This document shows positions 3,845 through 56,435 of a stretch of 64,000 bases of DNA, piece after piece (the first letter of the stretch is position 1; each line of letters opens with the position of its first letter). A program made the translations under genes and the position numbers. A model generated the notes under the pieces. That model had not been told where the DNA came from. It searched no databases and worked only from the letters and a program-made list of their open reading frames with translations. This DNA is from Limisphaerales bacterium. Its GTDB lineage: Bacteria > Verrucomicrobiota > Verrucomicrobiia > Limisphaerales > AAA164-E04. The DNA lies in contig OZ245740.1 of NCBI GenBank assembly GCA_965227305.1, positions 9,449,524 through 9,513,523 on the forward strand, written 5' to 3'.

Positions 3845-3868
3845 TCCGGTTTCTCTACGGTTTGGGGG

Positions 3869-4783: not shown

Positions 4784-4841
4784 TCAAGAGCGCCCGGAGG
4801 TTCCCGTGTTGCCCGCTTTTCCAAGCGTTGGCTGGCAAAAT

Positions 4842-5013
4842 GGTGGGGCGAGCGTACCCGCGAGCCGTTGGGCAAGAGCAGGTAACGCACACACCGTCTC
4901 CGTGCGGTCGAAAGTTTTGGTGGTCCTGTCCTCGTGCGCCGGGGATCCTTCGGAATTGGCGTCCATCGTTGTGCCGACGGCTCGCGAGTACGCTCTCCCC
5001 ACCTTCCGGAACC
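4842..5013. repeat. Palindromic intergenic repeat, copy a (long variant, inverted relative to copies b-e)
   Basis: Arm ggtggggcgagcgtacccgcgagccgtt (4842-4869) is complementary, with a few mismatches, to gacggctcgcgagtacgctctccccacc (4986-5013). It lies in the divergent region between the cytochrome gene and leuS. Confidence 0.85.
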
Positions 5014-5092
5014 GAACGTCGCGCGTCTCTTTAAAGACTTCTTCCAGAAGGGGGTTGCGGTCCGGGGCCGATTTTTTCAATATGCCCGGCCT

Positions 5093-9253: not shown

Positions 9254-9363
9254 GGTAGGGCGAGCGTACCCGCGAGCCGTTCCTACCCAAAGCGTCCCTC
9301 TGAGCCGATGGCCTTTGCGAACCCTGCTTTTGCCCAACGGCTCGCGGGTACGCTCGCCCTACC
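9254..9363. repeat. Palindromic intergenic repeat, copy b (archetype, 110 bp)
   Basis: Perfect 28-nt inverted arms: ggtagggcgagcgtacccgcgagccgtt (9254-9281) and aacggctcgcgggtacgctcgccctacc (9336-9363), with a 54-nt centre. Confidence 0.9.
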
Positions 9364-9488
9364 TTGGATCCAAGCTTCAGGAACTCGATCGTCTTTTCTG
9401 TTCTGTTCGACTTCGAGTGTGGCTCTGCTTTGCACTTGTTTCGGGGGCAAATCATGCGAGGATCAGGGTTGGTTTTTCTGGTCTGCAC

Positions 9489-11811: not shown

Positions 11812-11921
11812 GGTAGGGCGAGCGTACTCGCGAGCCGTTCCTACCCGGAGCGTCCATCTGAGCCGATGGCCTTTGCGGACCCTGCTTTTGCCCAACGGCT
11901 CGCGGGTACGCTCGCCCTACC
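11812..11921. repeat. Palindromic intergenic repeat, copy c
   Basis: Same orientation and length as copy b. By hand alignment I count 5 differences in 110 nt. The arms at 11812-11839 and 11894-11921 have one mismatch. Confidence 0.9.
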
Positions 11922-35658: not shown

Positions 35659-35661
35659 TTC

Positions 35662-40199: not shown

Positions 40200-40297
40200 G
40201 GGTTTGAATCGGGTTCAATTCTGTCTGAGCTATCTTAGCAACGTTGGCTGGCAGAGTTCCTTAGTTATTTGTGGTGCGTGCATCCACACTGTGGGCT

Positions 40298-40408
40298 GGT
40301 GGGGCGAGCGTACCCGCGAGCCGTTCCAACCCGGCGCATTCTTCGGAGCCGGTGGCGTTTTGCGGACGCTTCTCTTGCCCAACGGCTCGCGGGTACGCTC
40401 GCCCCACC
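40298..40408. repeat. Palindromic intergenic repeat, copy d
   Basis: Perfect 28-nt arms: ggtggggcgagcgtacccgcgagccgtt (40298-40325) and aacggctcgcgggtacgctcgccccacc (40381-40408). It lies in the divergent HEAT / DUF1559 region. Confidence 0.9.
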
Positions 40409-40466
40409 GGGGCTCGCCCGACCTTTTCTTGACATTCATTTGGGGTGTCGGGAGATTGGTTTCCTC

Positions 40467-41297
40467 ATGAAAGCTACCCGTGTTCCCACCAGCCGCTTGG
40501 GCTTTACGTTGATTGAGTTGTTGGTTGTGATTGCCATCATCGCGATCCTGGCCGGTATGTTGTTGCCGGCGTTGGGCAAAGCCAAGGCCAAGGGGCAGGG
40601 GATCGCCTGCTTGAACAATTTGAAGCAGTTGCAGCTGGCGCACCTCATGTATCCGGACGATAACAATGACTTTTTGACCAAACCGGGTAATAGCGGGGAC
40701 GAACTTTATGCCTGGGTTGGCGGGTGGATCGACTACAACGCCGGCAACACGGATAACACGAATATCCAAGATCTGCTGGATCCCGAACGGGCGATGTTTG
40801 CTCCCTACCTGCCTTCCGTGAAGGTGTATCACTGTCCGGCCGATAAGAGCTACGTGACGATCCGTGGAAAGCGGCACAGTCGAATCCGAAGCATGGGGAT
40901 GAGTCAGGCGATGGGTGGTCCTGGAGTTTGGCTCTCGCCCGGTGCCACGAAGTATCGGGCATTTATCAAAAGCTCGGATATCAACATCGCGGGACCTTCC
41001 AATATGTATGTCTTGTTGGATGAGCATCCGGATAGCATTAACGCCGGCGGTTTTGCAAACCAGATGGTGGAAAGTCCGGGCAGTGCCCGCATCATCGATT
41101 ATCCGGCGAGTTACCACAATGGGGCGGCGGGACTCTCGTTTGCGGACGGGCATGCCGAGATCAAAAAGTGGCTGGATCCGCGGACGGTCTTGCCCGTGCA
41201 AAACAAATTGATGCCGCTCAACGTCGCCTCAGCCAACAATCGAGATATGATTTGGTTGGCGGAACGGACGACGATTCCCGTCAATGCCAACAACTGA
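40467..41297 (+). CDS. DUF1559-type prepilin-like protein (N-terminal cleavage/methylation domain, H-X9-DG motif)
   Basis: The start is taken at the ATG at 40467. [12 protein letters not shown]|[43 protein letters not shown]. The C-terminal [16 protein letters not shown] is H-X9-DG. The antisense track ORF 40230..41201 is rejected. Confidence 0.88.
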
Positions 41298-42513: not shown

Positions 42514-42642
42514 ATTCGCCACTCTTCCGTAACCTATCCGTCGCAGCGTGCGTCTGCTCCGTTGAATGGTCCCATCGCCGCCGTTGAATCGGCTGTTCCG
42601 AGCGGAAATCCGCAGGGACCGGTTTGAGAAAGGTTCAATTTG

Positions 42643-44613
42643 ATGAAAAACAGCATTTTCGTTCACTTGCTACTCGGTGCCGCCCTGGTGGGAGTGAGCT
42701 TGGACGTGTCGGCGCAACGAGGCGGGCGTGGTGGCCGTGGAGGTTTTCCTGGGGGCGGTGAGGGTAGCGGAAAACGGATCGAACCCGAGGATCTGACCTT
42801 CGACTTGGGCATGGCCGCGATCCCGGATCGAGAGACTTTTGAGAAGCTCTCCTACCAGGGCCCGGACGTGATGCGGGATTCGTATTTGGCGGATCTTGAG
42901 TTCGTCAAATTCATCATCGAGAATTTTGATACCCCCAAGGCCAAGGTGTATTTCATGAACACCAACAACCACCGGGCCCACCCGCGTTTCATGCCCGAAG
43001 TTGGGATTGATCGCCAAGGTGCGGTGCGCGGAGCGATTACCTATCTCCCAAGACTGACGGCGCCGGATAAGAGCCCGGGACTCTACATCATCGATTTTCA
43101 GCCCAACGATTCCTACACCTTTGAAGAGATTCAGAAAGTCGTGGGCTATCTGTCCGCCAAAATGCCGATTCTCAATGGGAAGGTAGCCTTCCACCCCTTG
43201 CGCGGCAATCTAGACCAAGCGGAGCGTGATCGCGCCAAATACAAGGCCGCGAATCTGGCGGTGCATTATGACGAGGATCTCTATACGAATATTTCCTACC
43301 TCCCGTTGAACATGGCGGAATCGTTTGGGCGCTTGCGAGTCATGGAAAACGAAGCGCGACCCTCGCCGCGCGATGTCGTGATCTATAAGACTCTGCCGAA
43401 CCAGATGCCGCGCGTGGCTGGCGTGATCACGGAAGTGCGTCAGACGCCGCTTTCTCACGTGAATCTCCGGGCGGTGCAGGACAAGATTCCGAACGCCTTT
43501 ATCAATGGTGCCTTGGGGTTGAGCGATGTGAAGTCGCTGATCGGTAAATGGGTGCACTACAAAGTGACGCCGCAGGGTTATTCGCTGAAGGAAGCCAAGC
43601 CGGATCAAGTGGATGCGTATTTTGCTAAGTTGCGCCCGAGCGAAGGGCAGAAACCGAAGCGCGATTTGAGTGTCAAAAACGCTCGCCCTCTCAGCCAGGT
43701 TGCGTTCAAAGATGCCGGCGCCTTCGGGGTGAAAGCTGCCAACCTCGGCACCATGTTGACTTTCGATTTGCCGGAAGGCACGGTGCCGACCGGGCAAGCG
43801 ATTCCGTTTCACTTCTACGATGCTTTCATGAAGCACAACGACTTCTATGATCGTGTGGATGCGCTCTTGGAGGATGATTCCGTCCGGTCGGACCCGGACG
43901 AGTTGCGCAAGGCGTTGAAGAAGCTGCGGAAAAAGATGCGTGAAGCGGACATGCCGGCTTGGATGGAAACCGCGTTGACTGCGGCTCAGAAATCATTCGA
44001 TGAGGGGGCTTCGATCCGGTGCCGGTCCAGCACAAACAATGAAGACTTGCCGGGCTTCAGCGGAGCTGGGCTCTATGACTCGTTTACCCATCGCGCAGAT
44101 GAGGGACCGCTTTCGAAATCCATCAAGCAAGTTTTTGCCAGCCTCTGGAATTTCCGTGCCTTTGAAGAGCGGGAGTTTTATCGGATCGATCACAAGTTGG
44201 CTGCCATGGGTGTGTTGCTGCATCCGAACTACAAAGACGAGCAGGCCAATGGTGTGGCGGTGACGGATGACATTCTCTATGAGAGCCAAGGGAACTACTA
44301 CCTCAACACTCAGGTTGGGGAAGACTTGGTGACCAACCCGGATGAGGCCTCGTCACCCGAAGAAGTCTTGTTAGGCTGGTGGCAGGAAGATGGGCACGAA
44401 GTCGTGCGGCGCTCGCTTGCTGCGAAAGGAGACGACACGTTGCTGAAGCCGCAGCACTTGGCGAGCCTTCGGGATCACCTGGCAACGATTCATGCTCGCT
44501 TTCGCGACTTGTATGGGCACAGCAAAGAGGATCAGTTTGCCATGGAAATCGAATACAAGATTTCCAAAGAGGGCACCTTGGTGATCAAGCAAGCCCGTCC
44601 TTGGGTGTTCTAG
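42643..44613 (+). CDS. PEP/pyruvate-binding (PPDK_N, ATP-grasp) domain protein with an apparent Sec signal peptide
   Basis: ATG at 42643 (a TTG lies at 42640). MKNSIFVHLLLGAALVGVSLDVSAQ is followed by RGGRGGRGGFPGGGEGSG. C-terminal half PPDK_N hallmarks: FGVKAANLGTM and IRCRSSTNNEDLPGFSGAGLYDS. Confidence 0.8.
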   Translation: MKNSIFVHLLLGAALVGVSLDVSAQRGGRGGRGGFPGGGEGSGKRIEPEDLTFDLGMAAIPDRETFEKLSYQGPDVMRDSYLADLEFVKFIIENFDTPKAKVYFMNTNNHRAHPRFMPEVGIDRQGAVRGAITYLPRLTAPDKSPGLYIIDFQPNDSYTFEEIQKVVGYLSAKMPILNGKVAFHPLRGNLDQAERDRAKYKAANLAVHYDEDLYTNISYLPLNMAESFGRLRVMENEARPSPRDVVIYKTLPNQMPRVAGVITEVRQTPLSHVNLRAVQDKIPNAFINGALGLSDVKSLIGKWVHYKVTPQGYSLKEAKPDQVDAYFAKLRPSEGQKPKRDLSVKNARPLSQVAFKDAGAFGVKAANLGTMLTFDLPEGTVPTGQAIPFHFYDAFMKHNDFYDRVDALLEDDSVRSDPDELRKALKKLRKKMREADMPAWMETALTAAQKSFDEGASIRCRSSTNNEDLPGFSGAGLYDSFTHRADEGPLSKSIKQVFASLWNFRAFEEREFYRIDHKLAAMGVLLHPNYKDEQANGVAVTDDILYESQGNYYLNTQVGEDLVTNPDEASSPEEVLLGWWQEDGHEVVRRSLAAKGDDTLLKPQHLASLRDHLATIHARFRDLYGHSKEDQFAMEIEYKISKEGTLVIKQARPWVF

Positions 44614-44632
44614 TCCCTTTGAATCCGAATGT

Positions 44633-44684
44633 CGGCAGGAAGATGGGAGCGCGAAACCGTTAGAATCGATCTGTCTTCCTGCCG
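44633..44684. terminator. Hairpin between convergent genes (weak bidirectional terminator candidate)
   Basis: Perfect 11-bp stem: cggcaggaaga (44633-44643) pairs with tcttcctgccg (44674-44684), with a 30-nt loop. There is no U-tract on either strand. Confidence 0.3.
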
Positions 44685-44708
44685 CTCGCCTTCCGCCCAA
44701 TCTCATCG

Positions 44709-45476
44709 CTAGCGGCGTGAGCTTGAGGTCGGGTTGCGAGACAGGATCTGAAAGAGGAATTCGACCTCGGCATTGATCTCTGAGGTGGTTTCCACCGTGT
44801 GGGCGATTTGTGACTCCAAAATGGCGCGGAACTTCTGACGCATCCGGAACACGGTCAGTCGTGCCGCGCTGACACTACATGCGAGCTTGGCGGCGATTTC
44901 TTCGTAGGGGATTCCGGCATTCTTGCCGTAGAGGTGCTCGCTGACTAAGTCGAAGACGTCCGATTTGCCTGCGCTCCGATAGTTGGTCCGCAGACTTTCT
45001 ATTGATCCGTCAATGAGCGTGGATGCCCAAGCGCGAAGGTAGAGGGTTTCCGGGTCTTGACCGGTTTCACTTAACGTCGCTCGATAGTTTTGTTCCCGCT
45101 GTTCGTCGTCGAGTGGGGCAAACTGGATGCCGCCCCCGCGTTTGAGGGCGGATTGTCTCCGAGTCTCGTCGGCGATGAAGTTCTTCAGATCCGTGAGTAG
45201 GAAGGTCCGCAGGCGTCCCCGGTCCGCATCCACCCGGTTTAAGGCTTCTCGCTCCAGTAGGCTGGTGAAGAATCCTTGTGCCAGATCCTCGGCGTCGGCC
45301 GGTGCGTATCCCTTTCGCCGAATGTAGACGTAGATGGGATACCAGTAAGCGCGACAGAGTTCTTCTAAGGCCATCTTGGCATCCTCATCGGGACCTTCCG
45401 TTGCCTGGAGCACCAGGTTCCAACGGGTGGTGGGAAAGGTTGCGGTTCGTTCCGGATGCTGGGGATCGGATGGCAT
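44709..45476 (-). CDS. ECF-type sigma-70 family RNA polymerase sigma factor (PVC type with an N-terminal TxW motif)
   Basis: FPTTRWNLVLQA..., sigma-2 region LCRAYWYPIYVYIRRKGYAPADAEDLAQGFFTSLL, sigma-4 HTH YEEIAAKLACSVSAARLTVFRMRQKFRAIL. Confidence 0.85.
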   Translation of the reverse strand: MPSDPQHPERTATFPTTRWNLVLQATEGPDEDAKMALEELCRAYWYPIYVYIRRKGYAPADAEDLAQGFFTSLLEREALNRVDADRGRLRTFLLTDLKNFIADETRRQSALKRGGGIQFAPLDDEQREQNYRATLSETGQDPETLYLRAWASTLIDGSIESLRTNYRSAGKSDVFDLVSEHLYGKNAGIPYEEIAAKLACSVSAARLTVFRMRQKFRAILESQIAHTVETTSEINAEVEFLFQILSRNPTSSSRR

Positions 45477-45547
45477 GGGGGATTTCGTTTCCCCATAAGT
45501 GCCATATCGAAGCGCAGTCGTGAAGCGGGAATTGTACGTGCCGGTGC

Positions 45548-45659
45548 GGTGGGGCGAGCGTACTCGCGAGCCGTTCTTGATTCGAGCGATTGGGGGACAC
45601 TGTGGTGTTTTTTAGGTCGCTGCTTTTGCCCAGCGGCTCGCGGGTACGCTCGCCCTACC
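45548..45659. repeat. Palindromic intergenic repeat, copy e
   Basis: Arms ggtggggcgagcgtactcgcgagccgtt (45548-45575) and agcggctcgcgggtacgctcgccctacc (45632-45659), with a few mismatches. It lies between the giant gene's stop and the sigma-factor start. Confidence 0.85.
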
Positions 45660-45702
45660 ATTTTTCCCGTTCCCGATGCGGTTGCTGTCTCCTTGGCGAG
45701 GC

Positions 45703-48700
45703 CTATTCGGCAAGTAAATCGATCAGCCGGAAGAAGCCGTATCCTTCGATAAACGGGGTTTGTCCGGGGGGTGCTACGATGGTGGGGCCGACTCGGCTGT
45801 CGATGATGAGTGGGGATCGTTCTCCTGGTGTGCGTCTCGGTGCGAGGACGGGGAACCAGGGACCATCGAAGCGACTCGCCGCTTGTAGTTGGAGACGGAT
45901 CGAATCTTCCCACTCCAACTGAATGAGTCCCGTGTCTGTGATGCTTACGGCTAAGGTCCGATTCCCGAGAGGAGGGAGGTCGATTGCTGGCGTTTCCCGC
46001 AGACGGAAGGGGCTGGTCGGGAGCGAGGGCGGTGGGAGCAATACATCCGGTGCGTTCAGCGTGAGTTCGACGATCCCTGATTCCCCTCTTAGCGGGGCGT
46101 CCGCGCGTTCGACCGCTCCGCTCCAGGCCCGCAATTGTACGAATGCGGTCGTCCCCACAAAGGGTAGCTCCACAACGCCGCCGGCAAACGTGCCCAGGGC
46201 AAATACCGTGATCGGCTCACAGACCGGCTGCAACTGAGTCCGGGTTGGTCCGGCCCAGATTTGTCCGATGACGTTGTTTCCGGCGAGACTGCCATCGGGA
46301 TTCATCACGGCTCCCTGGGTGTTGAGAAAGTTCAGGAGACCTCCTCGCCCAGGCTTCGGACAGTCGGCCATTGTTGGGGGGAGCCCGATACCGGGATCCG
46401 GGGTTGGGTTCACGGGTGGTTCCACCACGGGAGGTTCTGGAGTTGGCGGCTCTGCTAGAGCCAGGCCCATGACCCAAGTCGGGTTCTCGCGGAGCGCTCC
46501 GTGCGAAGCACTCGATGCGCCGGGCACGGTATTCCGAGTTTCGGCAGCGTCGGGTCCTTCGTCGAAGGGATAGTAGGCGACCAAACCTTCCTCGTCGCCA
46601 TTGAGTCGGCGAGTGCGATGCTCGGCGATATCCGCCAAGCTCCGGTCGGTGGCCCAGATTCTGAGCTCATCAATCCCACCTTGCCAAAACTCCCCTCCAC
46701 CGAATTGTTGTCCGATGTCTGTCCACAGCTCACGAGACGGGTTGGGAATCGCTCGACCCAGGGTTGCGCCCCCAGACGCGTCGAGAAATACGTGCGTGTT
46801 CTGGGAGCTTCGGACCAAGGCCACATGGTGCCACTGCCCGTCCGTTGGGAGTCGGACTCCGGTGTCCGACCACGCATCGCCCGCTCGGATATTTCCCTCG
46901 GGGGTCATGCCGACGTAGAAGCGGGGGAATCGGGCTTCGTTTGCTTGGCTGAGTGCTTCTCGAAAGATTCCGAGGGCGCTCTCGTCCATCCGATACCAAA
47001 ACTCGATGGTGAAATTTCCTTCGGTGGGAATGATGCTTTGGGGGATACGCACGTAGTCGTCATTCCCATCGAATTCGAGCGCGTAGTTGAGCGCGGGATC
47101 GCTGGGTGAGGGATTGGGGTCCGTAGGCTCAGGATCGGTCGGATCCGTCGGAGGGGGGGGGAGATTGCCGGACCCCCCGGAGATGCCAAAGAAGCCGTTA
47201 CGCCGACCACCCGTGGTGGGGGCATTCTCAGGGTCGAGGGGATTGTAGTGTTGGGCGACTTCTTCTCCGTCCGAGGCATCGTCCCCGTCGGTGTCCCATT
47301 CGTGAGGATCGGTTCCGGTGTGTTGCGGGTCGATGAAGAATCTGGTGTTGGTTTCGTAGCCGTCGAGTAGTCCGTCATCATCCGAATCCGGGTCCAACGG
47401 ATCCGTCCCTGTTACGGAGGCAGCGATCCATATGCCGGTGTTGGTTTCCTGATGGTCGAGCAGACCATCGCCGTCCGTATCGGCGTTTCGCGGATCCGTG
47501 CCTCGTTCGAATTCTTGCAGATTCGTCAGCTGATCGCCGTCCCAGTTTTTATCTGCGTCCGAGGGAGCCGGGCGAGTGGTGAGTTCATGATCGATGCCTC
47601 CGAGTGGGCGTAAGAAGGTGTTGTGAATGGGAGCGGACTGGTTGTTGGGCAAGGGGTCTCCGGGGCGTTGCCAGGCAATCGTCAGCGTCTCGTTGTTACT
47701 CTGCTCCCGCATGACCGCCTCGTAGAAGTAGCGTTGTCCGGCTTCCATCCAGATCGGATCGGAGAGTGGTTGAGTGGGGGTGGCGGCCACCATTCGGGTC
47801 CCGGTGGGCGATGGGTCGAGGCTCAAGTGGAACTCAGCCGGGTTCGGGGAGTTGAGCCGGAAGGTATGGAACCCGGTCTCGGTCGGAACGATGAATCCCG
47901 TCAGAACGAGTCCGTAGCCGCGGCCGTTTCCGGGAGTGTTGGTGAGATGGGGCAAGGTCTCTGTTCGAAGATTGGGGTGAGACGCCGGGAAGGAGCCGAA
48001 CCCTCTCGGTGCCGGATAGAATCCCTCCAGGCCTTGGCCGCCCGCATTGGGGAACACAATGCGCGTGGTGCCGCGGGCATCGGGATCCGAGTCCAGTTCC
48101 CAGGGAGCGAGAACGGCCGGCGAGAAACGCAGACGATCGAGATCTCCATTGAACTTGAACCCTTCTCGAAACTCGGCGGGCGCGCCGCCGCCCGGACGGA
48201 ATCGGGTGACTTCCACGCCCACGTTGGCCGTTGCGGATTGGCCCAGCGTGAGGCCCAATTCTGCGGTGCTTAGACTCATGGGCTTGGTGCCGGCGGGTTG
48301 GCCGTCAATGTAGAACCGAATATCACCGCGCACCGGGGATACTTGGGCAATGTGGTGCCACTGACCGTCGTTGGGAATCGACTGGTCGGAGAGAAAGCGA
48401 CCTTCAACAGAGTAAAACATGCCGAGGCGCCCATCCTCGGTAAGATAGAATCGATACCAGCGATCGGCGCTGTTCGATCCGCTGACGATCGTGCCAAACC
48501 TGGAGGCCGTGTTGGTCGGGTGACGAACCCAAGCCTCAATGCTGAAGCCGTCGAAGCCCGCGCGCACGATCGCTGGAGCGTTATCGAATCGAAGCGTTCG
48601 GTTGCCGTCAAACGAGACGTAGCGGTCCCCGCGGAGTCCACTGGGGCCATCGCCGATTCTAAACTCAGGTCGGTTCTCCGATTCATTGCGGAATGAGCCG

Positions 48701-51700
48701 GCTTGGTAGGCCATCCTCGGATCATCGAAATCGAATGCTTCGGCGAGAAAACGAGCGGGTAGGCTGGGCTCGGGGCGATCGGACTTATCTTGGCATTCGC
48801 AGTATGCCTCCCAGCGCTCGCGATCGAGGACGCGATTGGGGACTAAGTAGTCCACGACGAAGAATCGATGTTCGTAGCCCAAATTCGACTGCGAGGACAC
48901 TTCGTAAAGATAAGGAATGTAATTATACTTACAGATCTCTTTGTCGAGGGAAGCGAAGTTACTGACGGATCCCGCAATTTCGAGACTCTTGCCGTAGGTG
49001 GTGGTGGTCGTGGATTCCTCATCGATGCCCGTGGAGAATTCGTAGCCGCCGCCGAATTCCACGTCGATGCCGAAGGCTCCGGTGGCGAGATCCAGCTCGG
49101 CGCCGATGCGGACGGCTGAGGAGGTTGTGCTCCCTTCGAATCGGGACGTGTCCGTATCTTGTTGGAGGCTCCAGCCAACGGAGCCATTCCCGACACTGAC
49201 GATTTCGTTTGCCAAACCTGGATCCTGGGTTCCGTCCCATTGGACGCGGCCGCGGGTCTCCACCCAGCGAAAGCTTCCCTTGGGGTCATAGAGCTGGACC
49301 TCAAAGAGGTCGTTTGGGCGGCGGAAACTGCGGCGGAGGGCGGTGGGGTAGCGGTGCGGATCGACGTGGGTAGGACCAAAGACTTGCGCTTCGGTGAGGC
49401 TCAGTGTGCCGGTTCCTTCGCGTTGTACGCGTACGAAGCGGCCGACCACGTCCGCCTTGTTCTTCTGGGTCAGGAAATGCAGCGTCTCCAAGCCATTGCC
49501 CCGGTGAAAGAAACTAGCAACGTTGCCATCCCGTTTTAGCTCGCTCAGGGTTTTGCTTCCGAACGGTGTGGGGGAGACAAACACCCACACGTCCTTGAGT
49601 TCGTCGCGGATGTGGTCGGTTCGATTGTAGAGGCGGACATGCCGAATGGTGGTTTGTTCTCCGAGGTCTACCTGCCACCACGGTTCGAGTTCGGAACGGG
49701 TGGCGGATACGGAATTGCCTTCGAATCGGGGATCCAGTTTGCCATCGATCGCCCGATCGGCGGTGGCATTTAAGAGCGTGCTGGATTGGGAAGCGAATTG
49801 CTCCCGGAACAAGGCGAGGTTGGCCCAATCCCGAAGGACGGGAGCCCAACTGGGGACGCTGTTCGTCGCGACGAGTTGATCCCAGTCATTGAGGCTGAAT
49901 CCGGCATTGTTGGCGGACTTGAATTCGGAGAACCGCATTTGCCCATCGAGCAAGTTGCCGTCCGTGCTCATTTGGTAGTTGAATGCCTGGTACTCCGTTT
50001 CAGAGTAGCGAACGAGTGCCTCGCCGACCTCGATCGCATTGCTGCTCGAAACGCTCTGTGTTTCGCTGCGTTCCGTTCCGGTTTGCGTGCTGTTGCCGAG
50101 ATCTAAGCCGCCCGTCACGCGCATGGTTGCTTCAAGCTCGAAGAGTCCCAGGATATCGATGTCTTGTGTGTTCCCGACATATGCCGAGATGGAGTGACCG
50201 TGGGATACCGTCAGAGCGTCGCTCGTGCTACTGCCGGCAGAGTTCCCGCGAGCGATCTCGGCGGAGCGATCCAGGTCTCCCTGTAGATGTTCCCAATACG
50301 GCGGGACAAACGCGACGGCCGTGAGTTGGCGCTCGGTGACGGTCCTGCATGCGAGGCCTTCGTTCACGGGCTCGAAGGTGGCGACCAACGAGTCAAAGTT
50401 TCGATCCCCCAACGCAATGACGGGAGATTCTGTGAACTGGCCCGGTTCCAGGTTGGCGAAGGTGGTGTTTTCGATGAGTTGTGGATTCGGGGAGAAGACT
50501 TCGCGTAGGTGGACGAGGCGAAGCTGGTTCCGATTGTCGACGATCGCTACGACGATGTCATGAAAGCCGTCGCCATCCAGATCGCCGACTTGGGAGTGGA
50601 GTTTGGCGATGTTGCTATTGGAGAGATTGCCATTGGGGCCGTTAAACAGGCTTTGAGCAACGATATTGCGAGTGGCACTCAGGGTGCGAACCTGCCAGCG
50701 GCTTTGCGAACTGTTGAAGTAGGTGAGCACGATTTCGCGCAGCCCGTCACCGTCGGTATCGCCGAGGGCCAGGTTGAGCCCTTTAGTGGAATCGTTCGAG
50801 GCTTGGGCTAGGGTCCACTCGGTTTGGCTGGTGATGGATGCGGCGGCTGTCCCGTCGGTTGCTGGAGTCACGCGCAGGACTTCGACGGTCAGGCTGACGT
50901 TTTGGAGGGGATCTCCCGACGCGGGCGTGCCGGTGGCGAGGACGATTTCGTTGCCGGGGCGTTCGCCCACTGGGCCAATGGCTAGTTGGATGCGCTCGGG
51001 GAGTTGCGGGGTGGTGCGGCGTCGGGCGACTTCGCGAAGATTGGAATCACCGTCGGGGGTGCGTTCGCGGTGCCACTCAAGAACAATGATCTCCAGAAAC
51101 CCATCGCGAGTCAGCGCGAGGACGATGTTGTCGCGCGCATCCCCGGTCACGTCGCCGACCGCCATCGCCATGTGGTTGACGCGAGAACGTTCGTTGGGGG
51201 GCAAGCGCCAGTGGGCGTTGGCCAACTGAGGGTCCGCGGCGATGGAGCCGTCGGTTTCATTGGTATCCAAGACGTAGACGACGGGAGTAGGGACCGGGCC
51301 CTGTTCCAGTCCCCCCAGGATGACACTGTTGGGTTTGCCACCGTTTTCGAGAAGGATGCCGTCGAGGTTGCCGGTGGCCACGTGAAGATCCGGAATCGAG
51401 ATCGCGCCATGCCACCGGAGATTGGTGATGGGGGGCGTGGTGCGGTAGTTGGTGGTGGCGACTTGAGTGATGGTCTGGCCGGAGTTATCGGTGGTGTTCC
51501 AGGCTTGGATGAATTCGTCGTAGCCGTCGGCGTTGAGATCGGCGGCCGTTGCTCGGTGAGAATCGGTGAATCGGGTTTGGGCGACTTCCGCTTGGAACGG
51601 GCCGGGTTGGTAATTGACCAAGCGTTTGGGGGCGGTGGGGGTGTCTTGCAGTTGGTCTAGCGTGCGCCAGAAGAGGCTGTGGCGGGTCGCCCCGATGCTC

Positions 51701-51849
51701 CCGCGAGAGAGGCCACCAAGATAAATCTCGTGTTCGCCTCCGAGTTCGAAGGTTTTTCCGAAGGGCGACAGCAGGCAGTCTTGGGCGAGGGCGGACTGGC
51801 TGAACCAGAGAGCCAAAACTGTGATGAAGAGCTGTTTTTTTGTTCTCAT
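45703..51849 (-). CDS. Giant exported adhesin-like protein: FG-GAP/VCBS repeats, F5/8 type C (discoidin), two LamG, PA14 and thrombospondin type-3 Ca-binding repeats
   Basis: 2048 aa. Signal MRTKKQLFITVLALWFSQSALAQ. FG-GAP-like repeats: GDVTGDARDNIVLA, GDTDGDGLREIVL, GDLDGDGFHDIVVA. Discoidin-like block EPWWQVDLGEQTTIRHVRLYNR. LamG-like blocks DGQWHHIAQV and DGQWHHVALV...GGIDELRIW. PA14-like block GLVLTGFIVPTETGFHTFRLNS...LTIAWQRPG. TSP3-like repeats DTDGDGLLDHQE, DSDDDGLLDGYE, DTDGDDASDGEE. Confidence 0.85.
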   Translation of the reverse strand: MRTKKQLFITVLALWFSQSALAQDCLLSPFGKTFELGGEHEIYLGGLSRGSIGATRHSLFWRTLDQLQDTPTAPKRLVNYQPGPFQAEVAQTRFTDSHRATAADLNADGYDEFIQAWNTTDNSGQTITQVATTNYRTTPPITNLRWHGAISIPDLHVATGNLDGILLENGGKPNSVILGGLEQGPVPTPVVYVLDTNETDGSIAADPQLANAHWRLPPNERSRVNHMAMAVGDVTGDARDNIVLALTRDGFLEIIVLEWHRERTPDGDSNLREVARRRTTPQLPERIQLAIGPVGERPGNEIVLATGTPASGDPLQNVSLTVEVLRVTPATDGTAAASITSQTEWTLAQASNDSTKGLNLALGDTDGDGLREIVLTYFNSSQSRWQVRTLSATRNIVAQSLFNGPNGNLSNSNIAKLHSQVGDLDGDGFHDIVVAIVDNRNQLRLVHLREVFSPNPQLIENTTFANLEPGQFTESPVIALGDRNFDSLVATFEPVNEGLACRTVTERQLTAVAFVPPYWEHLQGDLDRSAEIARGNSAGSSTSDALTVSHGHSISAYVGNTQDIDILGLFELEATMRVTGGLDLGNSTQTGTERSETQSVSSSNAIEVGEALVRYSETEYQAFNYQMSTDGNLLDGQMRFSEFKSANNAGFSLNDWDQLVATNSVPSWAPVLRDWANLALFREQFASQSSTLLNATADRAIDGKLDPRFEGNSVSATRSELEPWWQVDLGEQTTIRHVRLYNRTDHIRDELKDVWVFVSPTPFGSKTLSELKRDGNVASFFHRGNGLETLHFLTQKNKADVVGRFVRVQREGTGTLSLTEAQVFGPTHVDPHRYPTALRRSFRRPNDLFEVQLYDPKGSFRWVETRGRVQWDGTQDPGLANEIVSVGNGSVGWSLQQDTDTSRFEGSTTSSAVRIGAELDLATGAFGIDVEFGGGYEFSTGIDEESTTTTTYGKSLEIAGSVSNFASLDKEICKYNYIPYLYEVSSQSNLGYEHRFFVVDYLVPNRVLDRERWEAYCECQDKSDRPEPSLPARFLAEAFDFDDPRMAYQAGSFRNESENRPEFRIGDGPSGLRGDRYVSFDGNRTLRFDNAPAIVRAGFDGFSIEAWVRHPTNTASRFGTIVSGSNSADRWYRFYLTEDGRLGMFYSVEGRFLSDQSIPNDGQWHHIAQVSPVRGDIRFYIDGQPAGTKPMSLSTAELGLTLGQSATANVGVEVTRFRPGGGAPAEFREGFKFNGDLDRLRFSPAVLAPWELDSDPDARGTTRIVFPNAGGQGLEGFYPAPRGFGSFPASHPNLRTETLPHLTNTPGNGRGYGLVLTGFIVPTETGFHTFRLNSPNPAEFHLSLDPSPTGTRMVAATPTQPLSDPIWMEAGQRYFYEAVMREQSNNETLTIAWQRPGDPLPNNQSAPIHNTFLRPLGGIDHELTTRPAPSDADKNWDGDQLTNLQEFERGTDPRNADTDGDGLLDHQETNTGIWIAASVTGTDPLDPDSDDDGLLDGYETNTRFFIDPQHTGTDPHEWDTDGDDASDGEEVAQHYNPLDPENAPTTGGRRNGFFGISGGSGNLPPPPTDPTDPEPTDPNPSPSDPALNYALEFDGNDDYVRIPQSIIPTEGNFTIEFWYRMDESALGIFREALSQANEARFPRFYVGMTPEGNIRAGDAWSDTGVRLPTDGQWHHVALVRSSQNTHVFLDASGGATLGRAIPNPSRELWTDIGQQFGGGEFWQGGIDELRIWATDRSLADIAEHRTRRLNGDEEGLVAYYPFDEGPDAAETRNTVPGASSASHGALRENPTWVMGLALAEPPTPEPPVVEPPVNPTPDPGIGLPPTMADCPKPGRGGLLNFLNTQGAVMNPDGSLAGNNVIGQIWAGPTRTQLQPVCEPITVFALGTFAGGVVELPFVGTTAFVQLRAWSGAVERADAPLRGESGIVELTLNAPDVLLPPPSLPTSPFRLRETPAIDLPPLGNRTLAVSITDTGLIQLEWEDSIRLQLQAASRFDGPWFPVLAPRRTPGERSPLIIDSRVGPTIVAPPGQTPFIEGYGFFRLIDLLAE

Positions 51850-51920
51850 AGAATTCCGTTCGGGGGTGCTATCGGAATTTCTTGGGAAACGTTTCGGGTT
51901 TATTTTTATTTTTTTTGAAC

Positions 51921-51946
51921 CGCAGATTTCGCAGATGGACGCAGAT
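51921..51946. promoter_or_regulatory. Three direct CGCAGAT repeats at about one-helical-turn spacing in the divergent giant-gene / kinase-gene region
   Basis: cgcagat occurs at 51921, 51930 and 51940, flanked by T8 runs at 51909-51916 and 51949-51956. Confidence 0.3.
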
Positions 51947-51973
51947 TCTTTTTTTTCTGGGGCTGGCGGGGCT

Positions 51974-52037
51974 GGTAGGGCGAGCGTACTCGCGAGCCGT
52001 TGGGCAAGAGACGGGATCGTCTGCTCTAGGCCCTACC
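51974..52037. repeat. Palindromic intergenic repeat, copy f (solo arm / truncated)
   Basis: ggtagggcgagcgtactcgcgagccgttgggcaagag matches the arm plus flank of copy a. The second arm is missing; only ccctacc (52031-52037) is left to pair with the first 7 nt. Confidence 0.75.
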
Positions 52038-52086
52038 GGGTGCGAATCCGGTTCTCGTTGGGATCGAAGTATGCTTAACTCACGCC

Positions 52087-55000
52087 GTGGCTGAGGCTTA
52101 TAAGCGATATGAGCTGGGCGAATCTCTTGCTTCTGGGGGCATGGGGGAGATTCTTCTCGCGCGTGATATCGAGCTCAATCGCGAGGTGGCGCTCAAGCGC
52201 ATGTTGTTTGTGCCGGATGAGTCCGAAGGACCGGAAGCGGTACGCTATTTCGAACGGTTTTTGGAGGAGGCGCAGATCACTGCCCAGTTGGATCACCCTT
52301 CGATTGTGCCGATTCATAGCATTGGGTTTGAAGAGGACGGACGGGCTTTTTACACCATGCGGCTCGTGCGTGGCCGGGAGTTGGGGACGATTTTTCGCCT
52401 CGTGCGCGAAGGCGACGGGGGGTGGAATCAGTCTCGCGTGATCGGCATTTTGGTCAAAGTGTGTCAGGCGGTGGCCTATGCCCATGCCAAGGGGATTGCG
52501 CATCGCGATCTAAAGCCGAGCAACATCATGGTGGGGGAGTTGGGTGAGGTGTACGTCATGGATTGGGGGTTGGCTAAGGCGTTCGAATGCCTGCGCCGAG
52601 AGGCGTTGCGGGCGGAGATTCCCGGCGAGTCGAGTGGCGTTGATACGATTGCCGTGGTTCGCTCGCTGGATTCTGAAATTCATCGAGGCGATACGAAGAC
52701 GGGCAATATTGTCGGGACCCCGGCGTATTTGGCTCCGGAGTTGGCGATGGGGACTTCACACGCGGCGGCTCCGCAGGGGGATGTGTATGCGTTGGGTGCC
52801 GTGCTGTATCATTTGCTGTCCGGACACGCGCCTTACATGGGGAACGGACAGAGCACGACCGCCGAAGAAGTCATCCGTTCGTTGCAACGGGAAGCGCCAG
52901 TTGCGATTCCGCGACGAACGGGGGTTCCTGCCGAGTTGATAGCGATCTGCGAGCAGGCGATGGCACGGGAACCGAACCAACGGTACGCGACGTGCGCCCA
53001 GATGGCAGAGGATCTTCAGGCTTACCTGGATGGGCGCGTGGTTCGGGCATACGAATCCGGTAAAATCGCTCGGTTTCGAAAATGGGTGTTGCGGAACCGG
53101 TTTCTTGCGGTGGCGGCAACGATCGCGCTATTGGCCTTGGTGGCCGTGGCCTGGATTTCGACCTGGTCGAGTGTGAGGCTTACGGATGCGTTGGAGGAAA
53201 CCGAGCAAGAGCGGGAGCGCGCTGTGCAAGTGTTAGCGGAGTCTTTTTTCCTTCAAGGCGGGCAGTATTATCAGCAGCGCGATGTGCGGTCGGGGCTGGC
53301 CTATTGGGCCCAGGCTTTGGAGCAAGATCTCGAACACCATGCCGCAGCGGCTCGGATTGCGGCGATTTGCCTGCAGGAACGAATCCCGCTCCCCGCGAGC
53401 GCCCCGTTGCGAAGTAAGGGGCGCTTGAATGTGTTGGGGGTCGATCCTGCAGGACGCTACATCGCGTTAAGTGAGGTCGACTTTGGCGTGCGGGTTTGGG
53501 ATTCCTTGGAGAGCGCTTGGGTGGGGAACTGGCAGTTTGGCTCGGCGCCGCGAAGGCTCACTTTCTTGCCGCGGCAACGGCTTGTGGTGGTCTCCGTCGT
53601 TCATCCCAACTGGCAATCGGGCGAGCTACATTGGTTGGATCTCGACACGGGGGGGCATCGTTGGCCGCCCTATACCTTCGAGGGAAGCGTGACGGGGTTG
53701 AGCGTGACTGTCAGCGAAGACGAACGATTGCTAGCGGCGGGAGGTGTCGTTTGGTCATTGGAGGATGGCCGGGTCGTCTTGGCGCCCAACCCGGAGCCCG
53801 TGGCGGCGAAGCGGGCCAACTTTGGTCCGAGAACGGCGCTCAGTCCAGATGGGCGTTGGCTCTTGCTCGGAGCGGCGGATGGAACGGTGTTGGTCTATGA
53901 CGTTGCGGGGCGACGTGAGGTGGGGCGGATCCGGCTTCGTGTCGACAACGGGAACTTGGCGAGTGTGGCGTGGGGCCCCAAGGCAGTGGAGTTTCTGGTG
54001 TCCTTTGACGGGGGGCGAGGGTTCGTGCTGCGGCGGGAGACGATGGAGACTCAAGGGACGTTCACGGCGGCCGGCACGGCTTACGAGTCGTTTGCCCTGG
54101 ATGCAACGGACCGGAGCGTCTTCTTGGGGAGCGACGGAAGTATTCAATTCTGGGATCATGCGGCCAATCGACTCGATTCGCTCGAAATGGACCATGGGAG
54201 TTCGATTGTCACCGGGGCGCTTCGGGCTGATGAACGCCACTTGCTCACGGTTGGCGCAGACAATTTGTTGCGCGTTTGGGATACCACCTCGGGCCGGGCT
54301 GTTTGTGAACCCATTCCTTTCAGCGTAGGGGGCGGCTTTCATCGCGATCGGATCCTTTCGCTGAACGCGGATGGTTCTCTTGAGCAGTGGCGAGTCCCGG
54401 GTCGGGTAGCCGAGCCTGTGGTGCATCGTTTTGATACGTCTCAATGGGAATATGGACATTCGGCGGTTACGCCCGACGGTCAGTATCTTATTGGTCCCGG
54501 CGCCCGCGCGGTTGAACTCGCCACGGAAAAGCTGCTCTATGAAGAGACCGTGCCGGGGGCTTACGGGCGCGTGCTGGTTGCTGTGGCGCCGGATTCGGAG
54601 CAGTACGCGGTTACTTTGGACTCCCAGCGGCTGTCATTGCGGGTGGTTTCCACGGGCGAGATCGTTTGGGAGTCTGGTGAAGGCCCGGCATCCATAGTGG
54701 GCTTGAACTTCTCTCCTTCTGGGAAGTATTTGGCGGCAGTGGGGGCAGAGGGAGATCTTGCGGTATGGCGGGTTGAGGATGCCGAGGCGAAACCGACTCG
54801 TATCCGTTTTCAACAACCGATTGGGAAGCCGGCCACGATTCGATTCGATGCGAGTGAAACCCGAGTTTGCCTGTCTGAATGGGGCGGCGGTCACTTTGCT
54901 TGGAATATCGAATCGGGCGAGTTGATTGGCGACTATCCTCAGGGTGATCATGCGGTTTATTCTTTCTTTGCCGAAGGGACGAGTTTGCAGGCGTTGGTGG

Positions 55001-55677
55001 GGCGATCTCAGTTTGGTCTCTGGGAAGAGCGCTCTAGAAACAGTCGCGAGGGATTTGGGCTTTTCCATGCTTCGACGATCGTAGGGCTCGATTTCAGTCG
55101 CGATGGGCGGTTTGTGGCCACGGCTTCTCATGACAGTACGGCTCAGGTTTGGGATTTGCTGAGCGGGCAGCCGGTAGGGGGGCGATTGCGGCATTCTGGC
55201 CCTTGTTATTCCTTGCACTTTGATGCTACCGGCGATCGGATTGCCACCAGTTCAGCCGGCCAGACGGCGAATCTGTGGGACCGACAAACCGGCGTTCGGT
55301 TGATGGAACTCCCGGCGGGTGCCGAGGGGGACGTGATTGCGTTGGCGTTTACCAAACGGGGGGATCAACTGTTTGGAACTGGGCACCAGTTTTTCACGCT
55401 GTGGGATCTTCCTCCCGGACCTCGGGAAGCGATACCGGCTTGGTGGCGCCTCTTTGCCGAGTCGTTGGCGGGCTTTCGTATCCGACGGGTGACGGCCAGC
55501 GAAGGGCAGGAACAAATCGCATCTGAGCCGGTGGGCTACGAGGAACAGCAGACTTTGTGGCGAGAGATTGCCGCTGCAGATGAAGGCAACCGATATGTTC
55601 AGATTGCTCGTTGGGTCTTGGCTGCGGGGGCGCAGCGGGCGGCTTCGCCTTTTCGGAAACGTTCCGGTGCAGAGTGA
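52087..55677 (+). CDS. Transmembrane Ser/Thr protein kinase with a large WD40/beta-propeller-like extracytoplasmic region
   Basis: GTG start. Hanks kinase motifs LASGGMGEILLA, VALKRM, HRDLKPSNIMV, DWGLAK, GTPAYLAPE. One TM segment FLAVAATIALLALVAVAWIS at about aa 339-358. About 800 aa follow with WD40-like units (SPDGRWLLLGAADGTVLVYDV, HDSTAQVWDLLSG, AGQTANLWD). Confidence 0.88.
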   Translation: MAEAYKRYELGESLASGGMGEILLARDIELNREVALKRMLFVPDESEGPEAVRYFERFLEEAQITAQLDHPSIVPIHSIGFEEDGRAFYTMRLVRGRELGTIFRLVREGDGGWNQSRVIGILVKVCQAVAYAHAKGIAHRDLKPSNIMVGELGEVYVMDWGLAKAFECLRREALRAEIPGESSGVDTIAVVRSLDSEIHRGDTKTGNIVGTPAYLAPELAMGTSHAAAPQGDVYALGAVLYHLLSGHAPYMGNGQSTTAEEVIRSLQREAPVAIPRRTGVPAELIAICEQAMAREPNQRYATCAQMAEDLQAYLDGRVVRAYESGKIARFRKWVLRNRFLAVAATIALLALVAVAWISTWSSVRLTDALEETEQERERAVQVLAESFFLQGGQYYQQRDVRSGLAYWAQALEQDLEHHAAAARIAAICLQERIPLPASAPLRSKGRLNVLGVDPAGRYIALSEVDFGVRVWDSLESAWVGNWQFGSAPRRLTFLPRQRLVVVSVVHPNWQSGELHWLDLDTGGHRWPPYTFEGSVTGLSVTVSEDERLLAAGGVVWSLEDGRVVLAPNPEPVAAKRANFGPRTALSPDGRWLLLGAADGTVLVYDVAGRREVGRIRLRVDNGNLASVAWGPKAVEFLVSFDGGRGFVLRRETMETQGTFTAAGTAYESFALDATDRSVFLGSDGSIQFWDHAANRLDSLEMDHGSSIVTGALRADERHLLTVGADNLLRVWDTTSGRAVCEPIPFSVGGGFHRDRILSLNADGSLEQWRVPGRVAEPVVHRFDTSQWEYGHSAVTPDGQYLIGPGARAVELATEKLLYEETVPGAYGRVLVAVAPDSEQYAVTLDSQRLSLRVVSTGEIVWESGEGPASIVGLNFSPSGKYLAAVGAEGDLAVWRVEDAEAKPTRIRFQQPIGKPATIRFDASETRVCLSEWGGGHFAWNIESGELIGDYPQGDHAVYSFFAEGTSLQALVGRSQFGLWEERSRNSREGFGLFHASTIVGLDFSRDGRFVATASHDSTAQVWDLLSGQPVGGRLRHSGPCYSLHFDATGDRIATSSAGQTANLWDRQTGVRLMELPAGAEGDVIALAFTKRGDQLFGTGHQFFTLWDLPPGPREAIPAWWRLFAESLAGFRIRRVTASEGQEQIASEPVGYEEQQTLWREIAAADEGNRYVQIARWVLAAGAQRAASPFRKRSGAE

Positions 55678-55712: not shown

Positions 55713-56435
55713 TTACTTGAGGCGATCGAACATCCGTCGAGGTGGGCCATCGAACTCGGCATCGGTAGGCAGCCAGAAGCGGCGGAGTTCGGCCTTGGCG
55801 TCAAATTCCACCGTCTCCCATTTGCTGATGTGCAGGTCGGCGAAGATGAGGTGGCCTCGTTTATTGTGCCGGAAGGCAAGGGAACGCGAGGCGAATTGGG
55901 GGCCGACTTGGCCACTGTAATCCTTGGGACCGAGATTGCCCTCCATGTAGAGCATGGTCGAGGTCGGTTCGAGGAAGCTGGATATTTTGGTGCTATGGCA
56001 AATGCCGCAGTTCATCCCGAAACTGTAGTTGCGATCGTGGGGACTGTTGTTGCGACCGCCTCTGGCGCGCCCGACTGTGGACGTCCGGCGTTTGGTAGCG
56101 AGTTCAATACGGTCGGTCGGGCAACTGTAGACTTTCTCTGAGTTGAGGTAGGGGTAAAGGGTGCCGGTAGTGAGGTCGCCCTGGCGCGAGTAGAGCCAGC
56201 CGCGAAATGAGGGGAAATGTTCGTCGTTGTCGTCCGCATAGATCCAAGAGCCTTGGCCGAGTTGACGCAGGTTGTTGAGGCAAGCGATGGTGCGACCGGC
56301 TTCCTTGGCAGTCGCCAAAGCGGGGAGCAACATCCCGGCGAGGATGGCGATTATGGCTGCCACGACCAGGAGCTCGATGAGGGTAAAGGCGGCCCTTGGC
56401 CACCTTACGAGAGTATCATTTCGAGCGAATGCCAT
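55713..56435 (-). CDS. DUF1559-type prepilin-like protein (variant H-X9-D motif)
   Basis: WPRAA|[44 protein letters not shown]. The C-terminal [17 protein letters not shown] is H-X9-DL rather than H-X9-DG. Confidence 0.85.

Follow-up and report, generated by a model that had tools for sequence, protein, structure and literature searches.

A conserved locus of an ECF sigma factor, a giant secreted protein and a receptor Ser/Thr kinase in a Limisphaerales bacterium

The three-gene locus and its orthologues

We analysed a 64,000-nucleotide stretch of the genome of a Limisphaerales bacterium (Verrucomicrobiota; GenBank assembly GCA_965227305.1, contig OZ245740.1, positions 9,449,524 to 9,513,523), hereafter called the window, with attention to a group of three genes encoding an extracytoplasmic function (ECF) sigma factor, a giant secreted protein, and a membrane-bound Ser/Thr kinase. 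An earlier reading of the same DNA, here called the original prediction, had proposed that the three form one regulatory locus. The open reading frames (ORFs) were confirmed at exactly the positions and on the strands that it gave:

44709-45476, minus strand: ECF-type sigma factor gene (255 aa)
45703-51849, minus strand: gene of a giant secreted multidomain protein (2048 aa)
52087-55677, plus strand: gene of a Hanks-type receptor Ser/Thr kinase (1196 aa); its GTG start codon is kept in the orthologues

The sigma factor gene is separated from the giant gene by 226 nt (45477-45702), and 237 nt (51850-52086) lie between the divergent giant and kinase genes. Downstream of the sigma factor gene a PPDK_N-like gene (42640-44613, plus strand) is the convergent neighbor, and no anti-sigma candidate was found next to the sigma factor gene among the ORFs of the window, as had been predicted on both counts. 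The sole ORF past the sigma stop codon (44371-44706, minus strand) was rejected as an anti-sigma gene; it is an Arg-rich antisense frame that overlaps the convergent gene.

A database search with the sigma factor returned 2476 relatives, and we located the contigs of the five closest, which were 54-63% identical. Four distinct orthologous loci (labeled L001/L002, L003, L004/L005, and L020/L021) have the genes in the same order as the window, first the kinase, then the giant gene and the sigma factor gene, with identities of 54-63% for the sigma factor and 70-76% for the kinase domain. In each of them a gene for a WD40 kinase (1194-1198 aa) diverges from that of a giant protein (2262-2662 aa) with FG-GAP, F5/8C, LamG, and PA14 domains, behind which the sigma factor gene follows. 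At a further locus, L022, a 1197-aa WD40 kinase orthologue (kinase domain 66% identical) is directly divergent from the sigma factor gene (55%) with no giant gene in between; the contig terminates 40 nt past the sigma factor gene. The flanking genes of the module differ at every orthologous locus, and therefore the module is the only conserved unit, with the kinase-sigma pair as its core. The synteny that the original prediction had suggested examining is thus present, and kinase and sigma factor co-occur in every orthologous locus found. The three-gene grouping is real and conserved and does not reflect chance. Genome and metagenome scans for further orthologues yielded near-full-length relatives of at most 46% identity and two short fragments of 57-58% identity.

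Two ORFs in the related loci were considered as anti-sigma candidates and rejected. A 60-aa ORF follows the sigma factor gene in L004 and has no counterpart in the window. In L001 (10998-12533) and L020 (10853-12391) the sigma factor gene is followed by a gene for a conserved protein of 511-512 aa, which carries a twin-arginine-like signal (MDLNNRRTFLK...) and matched no Pfam family, and then by an AraC-type regulator gene; this twin-arginine signal protein also lacks a counterpart in the window.

The sigma factor family and its kinases

In the sigma factor's family, linkage to Ser/Thr kinases is overwhelming, and co-encoded anti-sigma genes are lacking. Scanning one genome for each species by alignment, we obtained 80 sigma-family loci of about 12 kb each, from Verrucomicrobiota, Planctomycetota (e.g. 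L029, L039, L063, and L074), and Acidobacteriota. At 54 of the 80 loci (68%) a Hanks kinase was the next gene on the same strand, starting less than 600 nt downstream of the sigma factor gene, and a kinase gene adjoined the sigma factor gene at 55 of them. Loci L009-L017 have the same sigma-kinase pattern. The gap between the two ORFs was typically 30-250 nt, and a gene for a small membrane protein between the sigma factor and kinase genes was found at none of the family loci. Nine loci had no kinase in their flanks, four of these having truncated flanks, and at four loci only was the nearest kinase more than 3 kb away from the sigma factor gene. Since few kinase matches occurred elsewhere in the same loci, the enrichment next to the sigma factor gene is very large. 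The possibility raised in the original prediction against itself, that the sigma factor could fall in an ECF group with a standard anti-sigma factor, is not borne out by this family context.

The cognate kinases, as called ORFs, ranged from 250 to 1411 aa (401-1411 aa save for one 250-aa call). Their sensor parts were diverse: RDD domains occurred, WD40-like regions were found at about 15 of the 80 loci, and most had no Pfam match. Apart from the orthologous pair, locus L022 harbors a second divergent pair (2660-5448): its kinase has 644 aa and a weak RCC1/WD40_RLD-like region, and the partner gene, of 255 aa, gave no Pfam match. A further tblastn match of the sigma family in this locus, 40.5% identical to the sigma factor of the window, has a kinase about 1 kb off. 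Such kinase-sigma pairs are multiplied within genomes.

The protein encoded by 44709-45476 is an ECF (group 4) member of the sigma-70 family. It matched the Pfam families Sigma70_ECF with 27 bits (cut-off 21.1) and Sigma70_r2 with 25.3 bits (cut-off 24), with a weak match to r4_2, and scored 39.5 bits with TIGR02937, slightly below the cut-off of 42.9. A profile of the sigma family searched against the PDB matched Mycobacterium tuberculosis SigE at 1e-7 with both domains covered. An AlphaFold2 (AF2) model of the sigma factor reached a pLDDT (predicted local distance difference test score) of 82.9 and a pTM (predicted template modeling score) of 0.76, and its best fold matches were ECF sigma factors.

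In region 2.2, residues 61-67 of the sigma factor read DAEDLAQ and align residue for residue with DAEDLTQ of M. tuberculosis SigE. Among 120 family members Asp61 was conserved in 96%, Ala62 in 99%, Glu63 in 76% (Gln in 21%), and Asp64 in 100%. The N-terminus carries a family signature, Phe14-Pro-Thr-Thr17-x-Trp19-x-x-Val22 in the window and F-P-T-T-x-W-[ST]-x-V in the family, of which Phe14, Thr17, and Trp19 are invariant. A C-terminal extension follows the pattern I-A-x-T-V-x-x-P-x-E-V-x-x-E-L (I-A-H-T227-V...E237...L241 in the window) with invariant Thr227 and Glu237. Thr17 and Thr227 were present in 101 of 101 genomic family members; in the database set Thr17 was found in 118 of 120, the other two being alignment gaps, and Thr227 in 120 of 120. 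The sigma2-sigma4 linker is long (approximately residues 112-142), with K-R-G-G-G as part of the family signature and Asp141-Pro142 in the window. Pro142 is invariant in the family; depending on the sample, the residue preceding it is Ser or Thr in 53-59% of members and Asp or Glu in 17-41%. It is Asp in the window sigma factor and in all its orthologues. Residue Thr/Ser91 aligns to the FEGWL segment of SigE at a position that is often occupied by small residues in canonical ECF sigma factors, and it was therefore not considered distinctive. A Cys in the first long sigma-2 helix, Cys41 (window 45354-45356, ALEELCRAYWYP), is invariant in 120 of 120 members and has no invariant partner Cys.

The kinase gene was predicted to have a single transmembrane (TM) segment and a WD40-type extracytoplasmic part, and this description holds. 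The parts of the encoded protein are as follows:

52108-53031, plus strand: kinase domain, residues 8-315, from the Pkinase match and motifs
53101-53169, plus strand: single TM segment, approximately residues 339-361, in the sole hydrophobic segment (about residues 334-364)
approximately 53404-55416, plus strand: WD40 beta-propeller region, from profile matches, in the periplasmic part of about 835 residues

The Pkinase match (E = 3e-36) and the catalytic motifs VALK at residue 34, HRDLK at 139, DWG at 159, and APE at 216 place the protein, on its sequence, among the Hanks-type (eukaryote-like) Ser/Thr kinases. Its topology is that of a single-pass receptor with all catalytic motifs. The C-terminal part matched the WD40 family PF00400 with 88 bits, and many propeller families matched at approximately residues 633-1108, by which the periplasmic part is classified as a WD40 beta-propeller. 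Membrane Ser/Thr kinases of Planctomycetota are built in the same way, with the Pkinase domain in the cytoplasm, a single TM helix, and a WD40 array in the periplasm (PMC11032199). In that survey the kinases were not tied to sigma factors or targets, whereas for the window kinase we can name the partner sigma factor and a candidate promoter of the target gene.

A zinc-ribbon-like motif, CPxCGxxLPxxAPxGLCPxCL, precedes the kinase domain by about 25-40 residues in 48 of 54 cognate kinases. It escapes recognition by Pfam. Examples are found in L063 (6820-6990), L036 (6782-6950), and L006 (approximately 5580-5750, minus strand), and in loci L025-L103. A 62-aa "gene" in L023 that could be taken for an anti-sigma gene was rejected because it is the zinc-ribbon N-terminus of a truncated kinase. 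Docking of the sigma factor is a plausible role for the ribbon, which may be a sigma-docking or an anti-sigma-like module. The closest kinase outside the orthologues, from the sigma-kinase operon of L006 (49% identical), carries the ribbon, and the window clade lacks it. Together with the divergent gene order, this loss marks the window clade as a derived form.

The promoter regions and the giant secreted protein

Phylogenetic footprinting of the intergenic regions yielded a candidate promoter of the giant gene and a second conserved block, and the same regions contain copies of a repeat:

51869-51895, minus strand: candidate ECF-type promoter of the giant gene, GAAACG-N15-CGATAG (equal to GAAAC-N16-CGATA)
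45493-45535, minus strand: conserved block upstream of the sigma factor gene, AATTC..CTTC..TTCGATATGGCAC, kept in the window, L001, L003, L004, and L020
45548-45659, no strand assigned: inverted pair of a repeat resembling repetitive extragenic palindromic (REP) or miniature inverted-repeat transposable (MITE) elements, between the giant and sigma factor genes, which folds on the transcript into a hairpin whose stem has about 26 bp
51974-52001, no strand assigned: single copy of the same REP-like repeat, found as a repeat match, between the kinase and giant genes

The promoter candidate ends 19 nt before the giant ATG and is preceded by an A-tract (51899-51919). The pattern GAAAYG-N15-CGRTAG, derived without L020 and L022, ends 15-24 nt ahead of the giant ATG both in the window and in the four orthologous loci; it is exact in the window, L003, L004, and L020/L021, and has two mismatches in L001. 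In L020 the called giant start is about 150 nt too far upstream (1791-1940), which places the conserved promoter inside the called ORF; the true N-terminus, MRTKKR, resembles MRTKKQ of the window protein. In L022, the locus without an intervening giant gene, an exact match lies upstream of the sigma factor gene itself. No other exact match was found in the window or in 103 loci (about 1.1 Mb).

The Bacillus subtilis sigW consensus is TGAAAC-N16-CGTA. On the basis of its sequence, GAAAC-N16-CGATA has an ECF-like, sigW-like architecture, with AAC in the upstream and CG(A/T) in the downstream element. Its placement suggests that it is the sigma factor's own autoregulated promoter, heading a giant-sigma operon. 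As the giant gene is situated between this promoter and the sigma factor gene, the giant protein would then be the first and main product of a sigma-dependent operon. The arrangement resembles autoregulated ECF operons of the sigW/sigE type, with AAC in the -35 and CGT in the -10 element, in that a bipartite element stands right upstream of an operon that ends with the sigma factor gene. In classical autoregulated operons the sigma factor gene comes first and the anti-sigma gene follows, whereas here a 6-kb cargo gene comes first and there is no anti-sigma gene.

The motif appears to be specific to the window clade. Bipartite word counting on 104 upstream regions gave no motif common to the family, and the window-clade motif was not enriched upstream of other family members (8 matches vs. 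11 on the control strand). Such specificity would be expected if paralogous sigma-kinase pairs are orthogonal. Further regulon members in the window were not indicated either, with 13 matches at up to two mismatches against 16 expected.

The conserved block at 45493-45535 is unlike the ECF-type motif and could be a second promoter of the sigma factor gene, possibly a housekeeping one, or an operator. A sigma-54 reading of TGGCA-N3-TTGC in this upstream region was rejected because the spacing from GG to GC is 8 instead of 10. The 28-nt sequence that both intergenic regions share was likewise rejected as a promoter; it is the REP-like repeat, which has 11 copies in the window. The core of this REP/MITE-like element, GGTAGGGCGAGCGTACTCGCGAGCCGTT, would be expected zero times in 64 kb. 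Its copies are mostly intergenic and paired in inverted orientation at distances of 60-110 nt, forming long hairpins, and they are located at 4846-4867, 4978-4999, 9258-9279, 9338-9359, 11816-11837, 11896-11917, 40302-40323, 40383-40404, 45552-45573, 45634-45655, and 51978-51999. The pair at 45548-45659 has a hairpin energy of -62.9 kcal/mol (z = -5.1) without a U-tract and is absent from the orthologous loci.

The giant protein has the following parts, all encoded on the minus strand:

residues 1-22, minus strand: signal peptide, predicted from the sequence
approximately residues 100-500, minus strand: FG-GAP propeller region, from profile matches
approximately residues 680-825 (about 671-830, window 49360-49839, in its wider delimitation), minus strand: F-type-lectin-like F5/8C domain, from similarity to FBP32 and Sm-hPAF
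approximately residues 1100-1205, minus strand: first LamG_3 domain, from a profile match
approximately residues 1310-1400, minus strand: PA14-like region, a weak match
approximately residues 1450-1545, minus strand: TSP3-like calcium-binding repeats
residues 1594-1742, minus strand: second LamG_3 domain, from a profile match
approximately residues 1800-2048, minus strand: C-terminal domain without family match, conserved in the orthologues

No TM segment, PEP-CTERM signal, or other anchor was found in the protein. The F5/8C domain is similar to FBP32 (E = 5e-15) and Sm-hPAF (E = 9e-13). At the positions that we take to form the His/Arg/Arg fucose-binding triad of F-type lectins, the His is replaced by Ala (SVSAT vs. 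SVTHT) and the second Arg by Glu (DEL vs. NRL). The domain appears to have the F-type lectin fold without the canonical site, and its ligand is probably something other than the canonical fucose. An AF2 model of residues 480-1060, built from 5 sequences, was unusable (pLDDT 35.8).

Giant proteins of this type are rare, with 12 proteins at E ≤ 1e-20 among 5.8 billion. Every full-length orthologue was encoded inside the module, beside the kinase-sigma pair, and in this small clade only. Outside the module, the N-terminal half has a homologue joined to cadherin-like/Big_9 domains, with no kinase or sigma factor gene nearby; the fusion hints at an adhesin, suggestively at most. Conservation is highest at approximately residues 1570-2048, comprising the second LamG_3 domain and the unmatched domain of about 250 aa, with 55-57% identity. 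In L001 the C-terminal domain is called as a separate 216-aa gene (9263-9913) after a 2304-aa gene and is 57% identical to residues 1809-2046 of the window protein, which reflects either a frameshift or a truly separable module. With its signal peptide and lectin-like domains, the giant protein may reasonably be guessed to be an adhesin.

Related systems, proposed circuit and alternatives

Kinase-linked ECF groups, among them ECF43, ECF59-62, and ECF217, typically lack anti-sigma genes (PMC7826278). Direct phosphorylation has been proven for the ECF43 members EcfP and EcfK (PMC8999054, PMC13147305). ECF43 members have STTA or QTTA in place of DAED in region 2.2, and a phospho-Thr at this site restores the charge needed for binding the beta-prime clamp (PMC8999054, PMC13147305). 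EcfK has a further phosphosite, Thr106, in the linker; this position is Ser/Thr or Asp/Glu in 77% of ECF43 (PMC13147305). Other groups have been reported to have a DAED-like motif (PMC8999054), whereas Ser in place of DAED is reported for ECF59 and ECF60 (PMC8103513).

The ECF43 pairs EcfP-PknT of Vibrio parahaemolyticus and EcfK-PknS of Xanthomonas citri resemble the window locus in combining an anti-sigma-free ECF sigma factor with a linked Hanks kinase that spans the membrane and whose extracytoplasmic sensor varies, and in controlling a neighboring envelope or surface function (PMC8999054, PMC13147305). The ECF43 hallmarks of a kinase gene next to the sigma factor gene and a missing anti-sigma gene are found here, and the loss of DAED is not. 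Whereas ECF43 lacks DAED and a Thr in its place is the switch, the window family keeps the motif, which excludes ECF43 and likewise ECF59 and ECF60. Thr106 of EcfK may have an analogue at sigma position 141, but this residue is Asp in the window clade. Furthermore, the window family has N- and C-terminal signatures of its own and is found in Acidobacteriota and the Planctomycetes-Verrucomicrobia-Chlamydiae (PVC) group, whereas ECF43 is a group of Proteobacteria. The original prediction had invoked an ECF43-type (EcfP/PknT) mechanism and proposed a search for its phospho-acceptor Thr in the sigma-2 region. This part has to be given up: the ECF43-type Thr is absent and region 2.2 reads canonically as DAEDL(A/T)Q, in register with SigE.

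With a kinase in its context, no anti-sigma gene, and PVC taxonomy, the window sigma factor most likely belongs to the predicted kinase-linked ECF groups of PVC bacteria, with which it was compared by description only. It shares with ECF59-62 and ECF217 the taxonomy, the conserved and usually co-transcribed kinase context, and the lack of an anti-sigma gene. The window clade differs in that the kinase gene is divergent, a giant target gene separates promoter and sigma factor gene, and the kinase has no ribbon. ECFSTK1-4 of Planctomycetes correspond to ECF59-ECF62 (Jogler et al. 2012, cited in PMC4937300; Casas-Pastor et al. 2021, PMC7826278).

We propose that the membrane kinase senses an envelope or external cue with its periplasmic WD40 propeller and would then activate the partner ECF sigma factor through Ser/Thr phosphorylation. 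The active sigma factor would direct RNA polymerase to the sigW-like GAAACG-N15-CGATAG element at 51869-51895, from which the gene of the giant lectin-domain protein would be transcribed, with read-through into the sigma factor gene providing positive feedback. The block upstream of the sigma factor gene probably gives basal sigma expression. That kinase and sigma factor act as a functional pair is highly probable, and we consider it likely that transcription of the giant gene is driven by the sigma factor through the conserved promoter. The original idea that the sigma factor controls the giant gene fits the ECF-type promoter conserved in front of the giant gene and, in L022, in front of the sigma factor gene. 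The complete chain, including the sigma factor's direct phosphorylation, is evenly balanced in our judgment. We infer that the kinase phosphorylates the window sigma factor. Since DAED is intact, the switch cannot be the charge restoration of ECF43. The likeliest acceptors would be Thr17, part of FPTTxW where the first sigma-2 helix has its N-terminus, and Thr227, part of IAxTV where the C-terminal extension begins. Of the sense-and-stick module envisaged in the original prediction, the conserved kinase-linked sigma module and a candidate promoter stand, and the ECF43 mechanism falls, as does the ECF-type -35/-10 motif expected in both 51850-52086 and 45477-45702, which have only the REP-like repeat in common.

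Several observations weigh against this circuit. The sigma factor retains DAED, and it has residues that cannot be phosphorylated at positions rich in Ser/Thr in the family (Asn20, Ala66 in the window only, and Asp141), so that the sigma factor of the window clade could depend less on its kinase. The window kinase and all its orthologues begin directly with the kinase domain, and if the zinc ribbon docks the sigma factor, sigma-kinase coupling may be altered in this clade. The divergences of sigma factors and kinases outside the orthologues were uncorrelated (rho = 0.05), a result that is uninformative. The assignment of the promoter to this sigma factor comes from the single locus L022 and from the resemblance to ECF promoters, the REP hairpin between the giant and sigma factor genes could limit read-through, and no RNA runs with the sequence of the locus were found. 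Much of this would also suit a functional kinase-sigma pair that is controlled in another way than by sigma phosphorylation, with the kinase acting on another protein or on sigma stability, or with a constitutively competent sigma factor governed by its own transcription. The intact DAED, the residues at positions 20, 66, and 141, the ribbon-less kinase encoded divergently instead of sharing a transcript with the sigma factor, and the separate block upstream of the sigma factor gene are all in its favor. We nevertheless regard such control as rather unlikely, since the kinase orthologue is found beside the sigma orthologue everywhere, including L022 without the giant gene in between, Thr17 and Thr227 are kept, and among kinase-linked ECF sigma factors all those characterised undergo direct phosphorylation (PMC8999054, PMC13147305).

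Another conceivable arrangement is an autocrine loop, in which the giant protein is a ligand or co-sensor of the kinase propeller and its state at the surface (bound, stretched, or shed) in turn influences how the giant gene is expressed. WD40 propellers are platforms for protein interaction, the full-length giant gene is confined to a small clade and always accompanies the kinase-sigma pair, and the C-terminal region is conserved. However, the pair in L022 has no intervening giant gene, even though that contig ends shortly after the sigma factor gene, and the homologue of the N-terminal half exists elsewhere without a kinase or sigma factor gene; we consider the loop distinctly unlikely. Incidental adjacency, with an anti-sigma factor or other regulator encoded elsewhere and the kinase and giant genes as unrelated neighbors, is hardly credible. 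PVC genomes contain many kinase and ECF genes, and some chance adjacency is expected (PMC11032199), but a kinase as the next downstream gene in 68% of the family, a three-gene order kept at 54-63% sigma identity between wholly different flanks, and a conserved promoter all speak against it. A picture that joins these elements would have the family's sigma factor docked on the ribbon and phosphorylated at Thr17 or Thr227, relieving an intramolecular block; the window clade would have lost the ribbon and placed under the sigma factor's promoter a giant exoprotein read by the kinase propeller, closing a sense-and-stick circuit. As a whole this picture is quite improbable.

DAED-keeping kinase-linked ECF sigma factors have reportedly been predicted in PVC bacteria since 2012. 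To our knowledge none of the DAED-retaining, kinase-linked PVC groups has been experimentally characterised. What is new here is a defined candidate target promoter with its cargo gene, the rearranged gene order, the ribbon-less kinase, and the family-invariant threonines. The switch in DAED-keeping sigma factors must differ from that of ECF43, the only one known, and the locus offers a compact test case, comprising a single sigma factor and its kinase, one target gene with a candidate promoter at a precise position, and two invariant threonines. Work on it would reveal the control of a large class of regulators, abundant in the environment, that is found in Verrucomicrobiota, Planctomycetota, and Acidobacteriota, and would not amount to the discovery of a new kind of system.

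The surroundings of the module in the window contain genes typical of PVC bacteria, encoding PSCyt1/PSCyt2/PSD1 and DUF1501 proteins and prepilin-type N-methyl proteins (33115-37179 and 40269-41297). A prepilin-type N-methyl protein with a weak DUF1559 match is encoded at 55713-56435. These genes appear functionally unrelated to the three-gene module.

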